Below the pieces are notes generated by a model. It saw nothing but the letters and a program-made list of their open reading frames with translations. It was not told the DNA's origin and made no database searches. 64,000 nucleotides of DNA, from positions 60,655-124,654 of the forward strand of contig JAWKXS010000006.1 of the NCBI GenBank assembly GCA_041396885.1, given 5' to 3'. This DNA comes from Blastomonas sp. Its GTDB lineage: Bacteria; Pseudomonadota; Alphaproteobacteria; Sphingomonadales; Sphingomonadaceae. Below are positions 94 to 5,815 of this stretch, piece after piece. Within the stretch, counting starts at the first letter, position 1; every line of letters begins with the position of its first letter. The position numbers and the translations under genes were made by a program.

Positions 94-101
94 GCATATT
101 G
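94..101. repeat. 8-bp direct repeat GCATATTG, left copy of a target-site duplication
   Basis: This octamer directly abuts the left inverted repeat. The identical octamer at 2868-2875 abuts the right inverted repeat. Confidence 0.85.
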
Positions 102-120
102 GGTAGTGGGTCAGTTTGAA
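102..120. repeat. Terminal inverted repeat GGTAGTGGGTCAGTTTGAA at the transposase-distal end
   Basis: It is the perfect 19/19 reverse complement of 2849-2867. It begins GGTAGTG, which fits the GGnnnTG termini of the IS1 family. The transposase stop codon (111-113) lies inside it. Confidence 0.85.
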
Positions 121-1004
121 TTAGATTTCTTTTTGTAGGGTCCGCGCGCCTTCGGTTCGGCCTCTTCCTCGGCCGCTTCGACCAAGGCCACAATATCGCT
201 CACTTCCCAAAGCTTGTCCGACACGCCAGCGGCCATTGCGGGCGACATGCGCAACTTCCCGTGAACGCGGACGAAATTATAATACATCATGTGGAGCGCT
301 ACGGCGTGGGCATGGTTCTCGACTTTCTTGCTAAAGCCGTTTGTCAACCGCGTGAAGCGACGCATGTGCATCCGCATCGTGAGATTGTTGCGCTCGACAT
401 AAGACGTGCTAACATGACCTGCGTCAGGATTGCCTTCCACGCGCCGCTTGCGCGTGCCCGTACATTCAGCAGGACTGTAACGAACCTCGCTCGTTTTGCC
501 GCCCTCTGAGCCGTAGAGCTTAACAAGCTGCGCGTAGTCCACGTCGCAACCAAAAGCGCCCTCAACCGCTTCAAGATAGGCACGGTGCCCGTCGCTGGTT
601 AGCTGTACGCGATTAGCCAAGCGTGCAGCCAGATCGTCCATGAACCACATGGCGTATTCAGCGTCGCGACCGCCAACCAAGTAGGACAGGATCATCTTGC
701 TGTCGGCGTCGATGGCCGTCCAAGTCCAAGTGTCCCCAGCGGCTTCCGGAGCGGACTTAGCGGTCGCGACATTCTTCTGCTTGGCATAGGTGAACGACCA
801 GATTTCATCGACCTGCACGCGCGCCGCTTCGACGTTGCGCACGTTGGCATCGTGATAGGCAGCGCAAGCCTTGCCCGCGTCGATCAGCAGCTTGGCAACA
901 GTGTTCTTGCTAGCACCCGTCAGCCGCGTGATCGCACGGATGCTCTGCCCTTCACAAAGAAGGTGGAGGATGCGGGCGCGATCGTCGTTCGAGAGCCTGT
1001 TCAT
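111..1004 (-). CDS. DDE transposase, IS1-family-like single ORF (IS1595 family is the alternative)
   Basis: The N-terminal HTH is SIRAITRLTGASKNTVAKLL. DDE-region motifs are VDEIWSF, AIDADSK and TSDGHRAY. YVERNNLTMRMHMRRFTRLTNGFSKK resembles the IS1 InsB segment [25 protein letters not shown]. Confidence 0.85.
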   Translation of the reverse strand: MNRLSNDDRARILHLLCEGQSIRAITRLTGASKNTVAKLLIDAGKACAAYHDANVRNVEAARVQVDEIWSFTYAKQKNVATAKSAPEAAGDTWTWTAIDADSKMILSYLVGGRDAEYAMWFMDDLAARLANRVQLTSDGHRAYLEAVEGAFGCDVDYAQLVKLYGSEGGKTSEVRYSPAECTGTRKRRVEGNPDAGHVSTSYVERNNLTMRMHMRRFTRLTNGFSKKVENHAHAVALHMMYYNFVRVHGKLRMSPAMAAGVSDKLWEVSDIVALVEAAEEEAEPKARGPYKKKSNSN

Positions 1005-1011
1005 AGGCCCT

Positions 1012-1041
1012 TTTATAATGACCCTTATGCTTGAGTGTCAA
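1012..1041 (-). promoter_or_regulatory. Putative sigma70-type promoter for the transposase
   Basis: The minus strand reads TTGACA (1041-1036), an 18-nt spacer, then TATAAA (1017-1012), just upstream of the ATG at 1004. Confidence 0.4.
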
Positions 1042-1220
1042 GCACGAAGGGTCAGTTTGGAAACGGCCTCTTCAAAGCCTGCCGCGTAGCGGCGGATCAC
1101 TTCTTCCGCCACCGCGCGGGGATTTGCTCCTACATCACGACGAGGGAAGACCTGAGCGACAATATCGGCATCGCTCACCCTAGCGACTGTGCTTTCTGGT
1201 GCATCTTGCCTCTTGATCAT
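1038..1220 (-). CDS. Hypothetical 60-aa protein, third passenger gene
   Basis: Its ATG overlaps the upstream gene's stop codon as ATGA (1217-1220). I recognise no motif, so coding status is uncertain. Confidence 0.4.
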   Translation of the reverse strand: MIKRQDAPESTVARVSDADIVAQVFPRRDVGANPRAVAEEVIRRYAAGFEEAVSKLTLRA

Positions 1221-2503
1221 CGCCGTTGCTCCGTTGCCAATTTTTGTCGAACAAAAAATCTCCCGTTAAGTTCCGACGGGAAATAATGCTTTCTTTGAAT
1301 CCAGACGAAACCCTCAGATTTGGAGATTACCGCCACATCAACCTCACCGCCGACCGTCTCCTGCATCCTACTGACCTTACGCTTTAAAGACGTAACTTCG
1401 ACTAGCGACGTCGCAAGCGTAGCCAATTCTTGCTTGGGCATGGATCGTATCATATCTCTGATGGGGTTACTAGAGCTTGTTTTAATCTTTTCATCCGCCT
1501 TATCTTTTAAATCTGCGACAATTTTCTTGAGTGTTCCTTCGAACGCATTAATTGCCCTTCCCTTTTCATCATCAGAATTTGTAAATGCACCAAATAGCAT
1601 GTCGGTAGTTGTACGTATTGAAGACTCGATCAGCTCTTCGAAATAATCCCTGAGGTAGGGATCAACTCCATCAAGGAAACTGCGGATCATATCATCCTGG
1701 GCAAAGCCCAAAATTTCAGCTTCCGGGCCAGAGCGCTTGATGTCCACCGCTGGCTCGGCGTGCCATTTCAATTTTCCGTCGATTATCCCATCAGTTTCGA
1801 ACGAAATAAGCGTCGGAAGCATTTCCCTTTGACCAAAACCAGCAATAACAATACCAGTGCGACTTCCGGATAGCTCGTCCTTTGCGAGCAGATAACCAGC
1901 TAGCTTGTGCAAGAGTTCCCTTGTAGCCTTGTTCGGGTAGTGGTGCTCGAAATGACGGTCTATCAATATGTCCACGACACCCGTGTAACCTGTCGGAAGC
2001 ACAACTCTATTGAATCCGTTCGCGAATGAAGCACGCTGTAGCTTGGTGATCTCGGCACGGATCGCAGTCTGTGCCATGCCGTTGATTTTACTTTTGAGGA
2101 ACTTACCATCATCCCGAATGCGACGAATTAGCGCTGACTCGATATCTTGCGACAGTTCGGAAAAGCGATCAGCCAGACAGAAAACAATATTCTTCCTGCT
2201 CTCTTCTTCGGAAAATGTGATTGTCTTCAAATACTCTTTGAAGTGATCGACATACTCCCCAATATAGTCAAATTTCAAATCACCAATTGAACGCCTATAC
2301 TCTTTTATTAGAGGCTCATAAGGCACGCCCATAAAATCTAAGCGGCCATAGACCATTATACCGACCGGCTCGCAGCTACTCAGCTCGAATATTTTATTTA
2401 CTGTATTGTAAATTTTGATGTTCGGCGGTCGACCAATCGTAACAGCGCTATCTGCCGCCAACGCGACAGCCATCTTGTTGAGTATGGCGATCTCGGCTGT
2501 CAT
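1217..2503 (-). CDS. HslV/proteasome-beta-like Ntn-hydrolase family protein, atypically long at 428 aa
   Basis: I start it at ATG 2503, which forms an ATGA overlap with the upstream stop. The product begins M-TAEIAILNKMAVALAADSAVTIG, giving Thr1 and Asp17, with NKIF Lys at 36. GIVIAGFGQREMLPTLISFETDG and VGGEVDVAVISKSEGFVWI resemble proteasome-fold strands. G+C is visibly lower than in the flanks. Confidence 0.6.
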   Translation of the reverse strand: MTAEIAILNKMAVALAADSAVTIGRPPNIKIYNTVNKIFELSSCEPVGIMVYGRLDFMGVPYEPLIKEYRRSIGDLKFDYIGEYVDHFKEYLKTITFSEEESRKNIVFCLADRFSELSQDIESALIRRIRDDGKFLKSKINGMAQTAIRAEITKLQRASFANGFNRVVLPTGYTGVVDILIDRHFEHHYPNKATRELLHKLAGYLLAKDELSGSRTGIVIAGFGQREMLPTLISFETDGIIDGKLKWHAEPAVDIKRSGPEAEILGFAQDDMIRSFLDGVDPYLRDYFEELIESSIRTTTDMLFGAFTNSDDEKGRAINAFEGTLKKIVADLKDKADEKIKTSSSNPIRDMIRSMPKQELATLATSLVEVTSLKRKVSRMQETVGGEVDVAVISKSEGFVWIQRKHYFPSELNGRFFVRQKLATEQRR

Positions 2504-2751
2504 TTTTTCCACCGTTTTTCGGCAGCAGCTCGGGCGATCTCACTACGCCGTTCGGGAGATAGCTTCGCGGCTCGGGCCCGTCCGCCTTTGAGGCCACCCC
2601 TACGCCCGAGCAGTACGGCAGCGAGATCGCGGCCATCCTCGGTAGTGATCCGGTCTTCTATCTCACCAGTCGCAATATCAGCCACCAGCTTCGCAAGCTG
2701 GTTGGCATCGCGTGGACGCGGCAGTCGCTTTGACTCTGACATATTCCCCAT
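2500..2751 (-). CDS. Small basic protein with a KGG/ARAxxLSPERRSEIA C-terminal motif, first passenger gene
   Basis: The C-terminus is LGRRGGLKGGRARAAKLSPERRSEIARAAAEKRWKK. I trimmed the start to the internal ATG (MGNMSESK...) because the longer ORF would begin inside the IR. The start is uncertain; 2742 is an alternative. Confidence 0.55.
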   Translation of the reverse strand: MGNMSESKRLPRPRDANQLAKLVADIATGEIEDRITTEDGRDLAAVLLGRRGGLKGGRARAAKLSPERRSEIARAAAEKRWKK

Positions 2752-2848
2752 ATGCAGGGGAAAATCCCTCATTGCAATGCTTGACCGGACACGCAATTGT
2801 CTGAACTTGGTGAGACGACATGGAACATCATGAGACATCGTGGCTATT

Positions 2849-2867
2849 TTCAAACTGACCCACTACC
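2849..2867. repeat. Terminal inverted repeat TTCAAACTGACCCACTACC at the passenger-proximal end
   Basis: It is the perfect reverse complement of 102-120. Confidence 0.85.
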
Positions 2868-2875
2868 GCATATTG
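2868..2875. repeat. 8-bp direct repeat GCATATTG, right copy of the target-site duplication
   Basis: It is identical to 94-101 and directly abuts the IR. Confidence 0.85.
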
Positions 2876-4324: not shown

Positions 4325-5815
4325 TTATGTGACGTCTTCGCCCTGCTTTTTCTTGGCGAGGCGACGGCGCGCGGCCAGGGCTGCTGCACCAGCGCCGAAC
4401 AGCAGGACGATCGGCGGTGCCGGAACCGGGGTGCCGCCCGACGATCCGGTGCTGCCGCCGCCGGTGGAGCCGGTCGAGCCGCCGCTGCTGGACGAGGAGC
4501 CGCTGGACGAGCTGCTGCTCGAGGAACTGCTAGACGAAGAGCTGGAACCGCTCGAACCGCTGCTGCCGGTCGAGGTGCTGCCAAAGCTCGACGAACCGGT
4601 TGCGCCCGAAGAGGTCGCGCCAGAGGACGTGCCGCCCGACGATCCGCTGCTCGACGAAGACGAAGAGCTGGAAGAACTGGACGAGCTTGAAGACGATCCC
4701 GAAGAACCACTCGACCCCGACGAACCGCTGGAACCACTCGATCCGCTGGAACCCGACGAACCGCTCGATCCGGTGGAACCGGTCGAGCCATAGCTGGAGG
4801 AGCCGTAGCTGCTCGAACCATAGCTCGACGAGCCATAGCTGCTCGATCCGTAGCTGCTCGATCCGTAGCTGGAGGAACCATAGCTCGATGATCCATGGCT
4901 GCTGGAGCCATGGCCGGGCTTTCCGGGCCTGCCGCCGTTGGAACCGCCATTCGATCCGCCGCTGCTGCCCGATGAGGACGAGCTGGAGCTGGACGAACTG
5001 GAAGAGGAGGACGAGCTGGACGAACTGCTCGACGAGGATGACGAAACATTGCCCGATGACGTTGAGACGTTGCCCGACGAAGAGGAGACGTTACCCGAAG
5101 ACGACGAGACATTGCCCGAGGAGGTGCTGACACCGCCGGTCGAGGTCGAAACGCCACCCGTTGATGTGCTCACGCCACCCGTCGAGGTGGAAACGCCGCC
5201 CGTGGAGGTCGAAGTCGAAACGCCGCCGGTCGAGGTGCTGACCCCGCCCGATGTGCTCGACGTGCTCGAAGAACCGCCGGTCGATGTGCTGGAAAAGCCG
5301 CCGGTCGAGGTGCTGGACGAACCGCCCGTGCTGCTGAAACCGCCGGTCGAAGTGCTGGTCGAGCCGGTGCTGGTGGACGAAATAACCACGCTGCCGCCGC
5401 TGCTGCCGCCACCGCCGAAGAAACCGCCAAAGAAGCCGCCTCCGAAACCGCCGCCAAAGCCGCCGCTACCGCCAACGACAACGGGGATCGATCCGCCGGA
5501 TACAAAGCCCTGGGGCTGTGGTGCCGGGGGAAGCGGGGGCGGAAGCGGGATGGGAATCGGTGCAGCCTGCGTGGCGACCGTCACCACCGATGGGGTGCAG
5601 GTCGACGTCGTGGTCGTGCGGACTACCTTGCGGACACGCTTCACCTTACGGGCGGGCTCGCCCCGGGCGATCTGCCTGCCGCGAACCTTGGTCTTCGATT
5701 TCTGGACCGAAACCTGGGCGGGCGGGGTATCTGCAACATGAACCGCGCCGCCGCCAATCAGGGCGCCGCCGCAGGTGCAGGCACAAAGTTTCGCCAGAGC
5801 CATCCGTACTGACAT
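4325..5815 (-). CDS. Ser/Gly/Thr-rich low-complexity repeat protein with a PEP-CTERM-like C-terminal anchor
   Basis: 496 aa. It has a hydrophobic N-terminus, a basic block, a Pro-rich linker and a GGF block. Repeat units are GGVSTST, SGNVSSS and GSSSY. The C-terminus is VPAPPIVLLFGAGAAALAARRRLAKKK. Confidence 0.7.
   Translation of the reverse strand: MSVRMALAKLCACTCGGALIGGGAVHVADTPPAQVSVQKSKTKVRGRQIARGEPARKVKRVRKVVRTTTTSTCTPSVVTVATQAAPIPIPLPPPLPPAPQPQGFVSGGSIPVVVGGSGGFGGGFGGGFFGGFFGGGGSSGGSVVISSTSTGSTSTSTGGFSSTGGSSSTSTGGFSSTSTGGSSSTSSTSGGVSTSTGGVSTSTSTGGVSTSTGGVSTSTGGVSTSTGGVSTSSGNVSSSSGNVSSSSGNVSTSSGNVSSSSSSSSSSSSSSSSSSSSSSSSSGSSGGSNGGSNGGRPGKPGHGSSSHGSSSYGSSSYGSSSYGSSSYGSSSYGSSSYGSSSYGSTGSTGSSGSSGSSGSSGSSGSSGSSGSSGSSSSSSSSSSSSSSSSSGSSGGTSSGATSSGATGSSSFGSTSTGSSGSSGSSSSSSSSSSSSSSSGSSSSSGGSTGSTGGGSTGSSGGTPVPAPPIVLLFGAGAAALAARRRLAKKKQGEDVT
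4410..5530 (-). repeat. In-frame coding tandem repeats with 9-, 15- and 21-bp periods plus poly-Ser tracts
   Basis: A 15-bp unit (GSSSY/H) is repeated about 9 times around 4788-4912. 21-bp units lie around 5040-5260 and a 9-bp GSS unit around 4690-4785. Ser codon usage is mixed. Confidence 0.8.

Follow-up and report, generated by a model that had tools for sequence, protein, structure and literature searches.

The 64,000-nucleotide stretch of Blastomonas sp. DNA analyzed here (contig JAWKXS010000006.1, positions 60,655 to 124,654; hereafter the window) very probably holds, at positions 102-2867, an intact 2766-bp transporter insertion sequence (tIS) of the IS1 family, which is bracketed by an 8-bp target duplication and lies downstream of serS in a Blastomonas-like genome. 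Its passenger genes lie within the terminal inverted repeats (IRs) and the whole unit sits in one duplication, an arrangement that is repeated at other sites and agrees with the tIS concept (PMC9330008; PMC7986276). Four open reading frames (ORFs), all on the minus strand, are contained within the IRs; these encode an 80-aa basic protein (p80), a 428-aa proteasome-like protein, a 60-aa protein (p60) and the transposase.

The original prediction, made from the letters of this stretch, had placed perfect 19-bp IRs at the two ends with the same octamer outside them, and this is what is found: the IRs are exact reverse complements (19/19), and GCATATTG touches both outer tips (Table 1). Both termini read GGTAGTG inward and, as had been claimed, fit GGnnnTG, the end consensus of the IS1 family. 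When up to three mismatches are allowed, the IR 19-mer has two matches only in the window, and none in 100 shuffles. As a word alone, GCATATTG says little, because the window has five copies of it where 2.8 would be expected; the chance that the 8 bases beside two fixed points agree is about 4^-8 (1.5e-5). The G+C content is 42-50% in the cargo, 57-60% in the transposase gene and 62-67% in the host flank. A composite transposon is excluded by the presence of one transposase gene and one IR pair, with no two flanking IS copies.

It had also been predicted that the cargo moved together with the transposase, and at many unrelated sites the same IRs and 8-bp duplications do enclose both; further copies occur in relatives with the same cargo, with other cargo, and as miniature inverted-repeat transposable elements (MITEs). 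At least nine independent transposase-holding insertions with these IRs and 8-bp duplications are present in other Alphaproteobacteria and metagenomes, together with several further IR-bounded elements without a transposase. The same 19-mer, with 0-2 mismatches, ends the elements at loci L001, L009, L011, L012, L018, L089, L090, L095, L225 and L226, and the eight duplications that were read are unrelated sequences. The cargo of p80, 428-aa protein and small ORF is found in seven other elements, and its order, followed by the transposase, is the same in L001, L009, L011, L012, L018 and L225 (in L015 the upstream side is lost at the end of the contig). The Methylobacteriaceae element (L001-L007; 3.66 kb, IRs 19/19 and 18/19) has the duplication CCGCTCCG on both sides and encodes, in order, a p80-like protein, a 430-aa protein that is 48% identical to the 428-aa protein, a 63-aa protein and a 295-aa IS1 transposase. 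The others include Hansschlegelia L009 (duplication GAGCATTA, 3168 bp), Methylobacterium L011 (CGGCTCCC, 3938 bp), Litoreibacter L012 (CCCACCCT, 2694 bp) and Hyphomicrobium L018 (TGTGGTTC, two tandem element copies). The closest whole-element relative is L225, in which the transposase is 86%, p80 80% and the protease 61% identical to those of the window, and a megablast search of the element against plasmids gave transposase-gene matches only, in Mesorhizobium. Because whole units of the same design sit at many different sites, we conclude that the cargo travels with the transposase.

The tIS-borne 428-aa proteins all fall in one alphaproteobacterial clade, and across a clade of elements the set of p80, 428-aa protein and small ORF has diverged in step with the transposase. 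Two loci without a transposase keep parts of the same design: after the small ORF, L010 (7240-7330) retains AAATTGAC..GCGCTTGAC..GGTGGTCAC, and L038 (5610-7540) retains an IR-like 19-mer, p80 and TGCTTGAC. Since remnants of the junction block, or of IR and p80, persist in them, these two look like decayed tIS. The single clade and its decayed members therefore speak for one capture followed by co-divergence, rather than for an accident at this locus. A separate observation concerns the Hyphomicrobium metagenome-assembled genome (MAG), in which two complete element copies stand head to tail (L018:4465-10062) with TGTGGTTC on the left, between them and on the right. Such an arrangement might be a tandem dimer, might have come about when unequal exchange at the target duplication doubled the element, or might reflect the assembly.

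Two other accounts of the structure have to be weighed against these insertions. It is very unlikely that the window holds a plain ~1-kb IS beside resident genes, with the distal IR and octamer being a solo end or a coincidence. Such a 1-kb unit could once have existed, as the IR-core-like GGGTCAGTTTGGAA and the sequence GGGTCATTAT upstream of the transposase gene would allow, and the G+C content of the cargo is unlike that of the transposase gene; however, it is the outer IRs that match at 19/19 and have the 8-bp duplication, which the internal site lacks, the same cargo and transposase recur within the same IRs at at least five other sites with different duplications, and the nearest relatives do not have these genes beside serS. 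An artefact of assembly or binning, for example a foreign mobile element collapsed into the contig, would suit a contig that comes from a MAG and an element whose G+C content (42-60%) is below that of the host (62-67%). It hardly comes into consideration, given that a mis-join would not yield an exact 8-bp duplication at both IR tips, that the same structure is seen in isolates (Methylobacteriaceae, Hansschlegelia and a Mesorhizobium loti plasmid), and that lower G+C content is normal for horizontally acquired cargo.

Within the element, the prediction of three co-oriented, ATGA-coupled ORFs agrees with the overlaps at 1217-1220 and 2500-2503. The insertion had been put about 30 nt downstream of the serS stop codon, and the duplication does end 30 nt from that codon (2906-2908). 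On the other side, 93 nt of flank lie inside the window, with a possible minus-strand ORF start at 85. In the nearest SerS relatives (81% identical), serS is followed by a convergent gene for a TonB-dependent receptor, and the genes for p80, the protease and p60 are absent from beside serS.

Table 1. Features of the IS1-family element and its flanks (positions in the window)
Feature	Position	Strand	Remarks
Target-site duplication, left copy	94-101		GCATATTG; abuts outer IR tip
Terminal IR, transposase end (IRR in element orientation)	102-120		GGTAGTGGGTCAGTTTGAA reading inward; overlaps 3' end of transposase gene
Transposase, single-ORF IS1-family DDE, 297 aa	111-1004	-	N-terminal helix-turn-helix (HTH); D66, D138, E204
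Transposase promoter/operator block (right edge of cargo slot)	1005-1062	-	From upstream-region alignment
Block part: TATAAA	1012-1017
Block part: palindrome TGCTTGA-CAC-TCAAGCA	1027-1043
Block part: TTGACA	1036-1041
Block part: IR-core-like GGGTCAGTTTGGAA	1049-1062
p60, 60-aa ORF	1038-1220	-	ATGA-coupled to 428-aa gene; ends KLTLRA-stop
428-aa homologue of proteasome-beta/HslV-fold N-terminal nucleophile (Ntn) hydrolases (predicted fold)	1217-2503	-	ATG 2503; two large helical insertions
p80, 80-aa basic protein	2500-2742	-	ATGA-coupled to 428-aa gene; ATG chosen to match homologues
Terminal IR, cargo end (IRL in element orientation)	2849-2867		Exact reverse complement of GGTAGTGGGTCAGTTTGAA
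Target-site duplication, right copy	2868-2875		GCATATTG; abuts outer IR tip; 30 nt from serS stop

The transposase matches Pfam DDE_Tnp_IS1 with 34.8 bits (cut-off 24.1), with HTH_38 and HTH_23 at the N-terminus, and its best NCBIfam match is transpos_IS1 (62.8 bits, E 4e-17). The residues D66 (VDEIW), D138 (TSDGH) and E204 (YVERNN) are invariant across 12 diverse members that are 55-84% identical, and E204 aligns to the IERHN motif of E. coli IS1 InsB. There are at least 8000 close homologues; the best 120 are at least 81% identical, those among them with names are sphingomonads, and named homologues are mostly labelled "IS1 family transposase" by the source databases. Residues 1-60 contain two cysteines only (C17 and C47), and no Cys-rich zinc finger. 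Because the ORF is uninterrupted, with no frameshift, and the zinc finger is lacking, we regard the protein as a single-ORF member of the IS1 family that lies outside the classical subgroup. By analogy with IS1, it would bind the IR core via its N-terminal HTH and would cut and join DNA with D66, D138 and E204.

The original prediction had named both IS1 and IS1595 as families for which the 8-bp duplication is expected. The first is upheld by the Pfam match above cut-off, and the second falls away, as no match to DDE_Tnp_IS1595 was found in the transposase at E <= 0.1. Members of IS1595 reportedly make 8-bp duplications too, and several are said to have passenger genes, but the best Pfam and NCBIfam matches are both to IS1, the ends fit the IS1 consensus and the source databases place the homologues in IS1, so that there is very little chance of the element belonging to IS1595.

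The promoter of the transposase gene, which had been described as TTGACA-18-TATAAA, is present as such on the minus strand, with an 18-nt spacer and 7 nt ahead of the transposase ATG, and it lies inside a block that is conserved in sister elements. A consensus promoter scanner omits this site, as its second hexamer has A in place of T at the last position. In most of 24 distinct elements, TGCTTGAC is found ~30-35 nt before the transposase ATG, often within the palindrome TGCTTGA-N3-TCAAGCA. Copies of the IR core stand on both sides of this, AAACTGACC in IRR orientation before it and a GGTCAnnTTGAA-like sequence in IRL orientation after it; the degenerate, IRL-like GGGTCATTAT stands just upstream of the transposase gene. 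Chance was considered for the internal IR-like site at 1049-1062, as a strict pattern search was negative in sister elements, and this was overturned by alignments of the upstream regions. We infer that the transposase gene is autoregulated through this promoter block, in which case the sites involved would be the half-sites that resemble the IR core and the palindrome surrounding the -35 box; the block itself may descend from an older IR junction.

The block also encodes the final seven codons and the stop codon of p60 (KLTLRA-stop). The small ORF before the transposase ends in a block-encoded KLT..A-stop (AAACTGACC...TGCTTGA), with its stop codon inside the -35 box, even where the cargo and the remainder of the small ORF are unrelated (window 1038-1062; L226:1460-1483; L225:1777-1798). 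An unrelated 61-aa ORF in L226 likewise ends in the block, with KLTFPA-stop.

DNA similarity between the element of the window and elements with other cargo is confined to the IRs, part of p80, and the region that begins with the block at ~1060 and continues to the transposase-side IR. The backbone of the lineage therefore consists of IR, p80, cargo slot, promoter block, transposase, an optional second slot, and IR. An IR scan of metagenomes gave at least 120 loci, in which the duplication-flanked IR pairs bound anything from MITEs of 68-507 bp to elements of 2.2-3.25 kb. MITE-like short elements account for 28 of the 149 distinct IR ends; among those with the same 19-bp IRs and 8-bp duplications are L109:735-1084, L171:4898-5171 and L129:1281-1787.

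The lineage is widespread in the Alphaproteobacteria, and the contents of its slot are diverse and mostly of the defence or toxin type. In L090 (duplication TGTGGTCG), L095 (GCCGAGAG) and L089 (CACCAGCG; the element of the Mesorhizobium loti plasmid), which have the same perfect IRs, it holds HTH_3 and Peptidase_M78 cargo together with a protein of 157-163 aa and, in some cases, a HigB-like toxin. Other cargo among the IR-bounded elements includes Peptidase_M78/HTH, Fic, GmrSD, RhuM, dCTP-deaminase-like, Schlafen/AlbA_2-like, Eco29kI-type nuclease, FRG, RusA and short proteasome-like proteins, and Abi_2 is carried by an IR-bounded element in which no transposase was detected. The transposase is 93% identical in an element with different cargo (L226) and at most 86% identical in elements with the same cargo. 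This mismatch between transposase identity and cargo, and the jump in G+C content where the cargo lies, point to exchange of cassettes between closely related backbones.

Several elements merit separate description. In L226 (39-2419; 2381 bp, duplication GGAACTCG), the slot holds an SDH-type (PF01972) serine protease and a 61-aa ORF; its transposase is the closest to that of the window, and its cargo is a second combination of protease and small ORF, with a different fold. Short proteasome-like proteins of 231-295 aa, with an MTICI... start and weak PF00227 matches, are encoded in L118 (8177-9064) and L191 (2149-2844), where their genes, on the opposite strand, occupy the second slot, which separates the transposase gene from the IR. 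Elsewhere the second slot holds a RusA-like gene (L001) or a gene with an FRG domain (L011).

In the copy of the window, the slot is a two-gene module that consists of a predicted Ntn hydrolase and a coupled ORF of ~60 aa. An upstream GTG at 2512 would make the larger protein 431 aa long. It matched no family of Pfam, NCBIfam or PADLOC, and has a full-length match to phrog_5990 (E 4e-102); its homologues number more than 2896 and are spread across archaea and many phyla of bacteria. In an alignment of 106 sequences, T2 is present in at least 90%, and D18, K30, K37 and the GG of TVGG (TVGGxVDVAVISK..GF) are invariant; the T2-to-D18 spacing of 16 is the same as the distance between T1 and E17 in the archaeal Thermoplasma beta subunit. 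The AlphaFold2 model (pLDDT 90.3, pTM 0.86) was compared with the PDB by Foldseek; the top 21 and nearly all of the 50 matches listed are proteasome or Anbu subunits, mostly beta, with a probability of at least 0.9, and the best match in BFVD (viral structures) is a phage protein named "proteasome beta". In a profile search, the one part of the Thermoplasma beta subunit to be matched was its SGGMIDVAVITRKDGY motif, which is resembled by the motif TVGGEVDVAVISKSEGF of the 428-aa protein. The cargo is thus, by its predicted fold, an Ntn hydrolase of the proteasome-beta/HslV type with helical insertions.

Compared with HslV, 20S beta subunits and Anbu, the protein has the same predicted fold (Foldseek probability 1.0) and a threonine immediately after the methionine, but it is twice their size, has target-normalised TM-scores of 0.5-0.57, and has no AAA+ partner gene. 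It resembles the PMI-4 homologues (Fuchs, Alva and Lupas 2021; PMC8665760) in its predicted beta-like core, which has candidate residues of the Thr1/Asp17/Lys33 type and lacks a propeptide, in the positions of its long helical insertions (one after H1/H2, one between H3/H4), and in its spread over many bacterial phyla, Euryarchaeota and phages. The placement of the insertions and the taxonomic spread indicate that it is probably a PMI homologue of the PMI-4 type, and, following Fuchs et al., the helical insertions probably preclude the classical double-ring assembly. For PMI homologues, no informative genomic context was reported (PMC8665760); unlike in that account, we find a near-universal coupled small ORF, and one clade that rides an IS1-family tIS.

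This coupling is seen in the immediate neighborhood of the protease genes: an ORF of 46-78 aa that starts -25 to +80 nt from the stop of the 428-aa gene is present at 75 of 77 loci, versus 124 of 437 control positions (28%). Forty-two of these small ORFs form one phmmer cluster, and p60 of the window groups with those of L009 and L010. Pfam, NCBIfam and PADLOC gave nothing credible for p60, and besides the small ORF no neighbor of the protease family is conserved.

The sequence pattern of p80 is KRPRD.NQLAK ... GRxGGLKGGKARAxxLSPxxRSxIAxKAAxARW. The protein has no Pfam relative, a profile search against the PDB gave no match, and NCBIfam and PADLOC gave nothing credible; a copy on the Mesorhizobium loti plasmid is annotated "histone H1". 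Homologues of p80 lie beside the cargo-side IR and read inward at 29 of the 149 distinct IR ends, with any cargo; their alignment starts 29-345 nt from the IR end (within 100 nt in 18 of the 29), and a transposase gene is directly at that IR at three ends only. Since its place next to the cargo-side IR does not change with the cargo, p80 appears to belong to the core genes of the lineage and not to the passengers. The "passenger operon" of the original prediction is thus retained for the 428-aa gene and p60, and p80, with its constant position, is taken out of it. Retained as it is across cargo types, p80 may be needed for transposition, and it would be a DNA-binding accessory protein or a regulator of the element.

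An extension of this idea is that all of the extra genes are transposition machinery, with p80 as an InsA-like regulator and the protease and p60 controlling the transposase. For p80 such a role is quite possible: it is basic, with the "histone H1" annotation in one copy, and it is kept beside the cargo-side IR with every cargo type, the position of insA in IS1. For the protease it is improbable. Two different proteases (proteasome-like, and SDH in L226) do occur in the slot, each followed by an ORF of ~60 aa, but the protease and its small ORF exist without a transposase in dozens of phyla, archaea and phages, and sister elements with 82-93% identical transposases do without the protease and carry genes of toxin-antitoxin (TA) or restriction type.

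We consider instead that the protease module could be a self-contained conflict module of the defence or addiction type, which would benefit the host or stabilise the element. This is suggested because the sister slots hold HigB/HTH-M78, Fic and GmrSD, and because other IR-bounded members carry Abi_2, the dCTP-deaminase-like protein and the Eco29kI-type nuclease. A defence or addiction role of the protease and p60, argued by association, is plausible, if somewhat short of an even chance. About equally likely is the wider proposal that the lineage serves as a miniature vehicle dedicated to conflict genes, whose recombination-prone slot swaps restriction, abortive infection (Abi), TA and protease cassettes, and that the PMI-type homologue and its ~60-aa partner form an unrecognised two-gene defence or addiction system. 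If true, this would be the first function for the orphan PMI-type family.

Several points weigh against these conclusions. The IR search of 64 kb found a single copy of the element in the window. The contig comes from a MAG, the nearest SerS relatives are 81% identical and their downstream DNA is not alignable, and a search of the JGI metagenomes for the reconstructed empty site, ATTGCCAGCATATTGCCGCCATGC (...GATTGCCAGCATATTGCCGCCATGCC...), gave no exact match. Whole-unit transposition is deduced from sequence comparison. The transposase misses the NCBIfam transpos_IS1 equivalog cut-off of 100 bits, and it therefore belongs to a distant IS1 subgroup. Outside the tIS, the neighbors of the protease are heterogeneous, with a minority that matches defence families (mad2/3, DrmMI, PglX, AriA and GajA). 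No PADLOC model covers p80, the protease or p60, and we found nothing specific in the literature on a defence role for proteasome homologues or on this IS lineage.

Elsewhere in the window, a minus-strand ORF of 496 aa (4325-5815) consists nearly entirely of Ser/Gly/Thr repeats (GGxSTST, SSYGS and SGS runs); its C-terminus has a hydrophobic stretch and RRRLAKKK, which may recall a sorting tail of the PEP-CTERM type.

These insertions show that IS-sized elements, besides large transposons, islands and prophages, move genes of the defence or TA type as single units from one alphaproteobacterial genome to another, and the simple backbone is open to experiment. It gives two clues of context for orphan proteasome homologues, namely a near-universal coupled small ORF and a slot that otherwise holds conflict genes. 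In annotation, such elements and their MITEs can readily be delimited with p80, the 19-mer of the IR and the TGCTTGAC block as markers. The kind of element, a tIS, is already known; what is added is the picture of the lineage, with its backbone, slot, cassette exchange and MITEs, and the clue for the orphan family.

With IS1 of E. coli and the IS1 family of ISfinder, the element shares a DDE transposase that matches PF03400 and transpos_IS1, GGnnnTG ends, an 8-bp target duplication and an N-terminal HTH; in both, the 3' end of the transposase gene enters the IR and an IR-like sequence is found in the promoter region. It differs in having one ORF of 297 aa rather than insA and insB' joined by a -1 frameshift, in its length of 2.77 kb versus ~0.77 kb, with three additional genes, in the absence of a Cys-rich zinc finger from the first 60 transposase residues, and in scoring below the NCBIfam equivalog cut-off. 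Among the known tIS classes are those IS1595 subgroups that carry passengers and, within IS1, the single-ORF ISMhu11 group. Like these, the element has an IS-type transposase and IRs around passengers, with one duplication for the unit; unlike them, it has a conserved p80 at the non-transposase end, a defined slot with swappable cassettes, in some cases a second slot beyond the transposase, and many MITEs that derive from its lineage. A further system for comparison is that of the Tn7-like transposons with defence cargo, in which a backbone likewise has a variable slot that holds mostly restriction, Abi or TA-type genes. Compared with these, the present elements are far smaller, being IS-sized with one transposase, and they have no targeting proteins and no attachment-site specificity.

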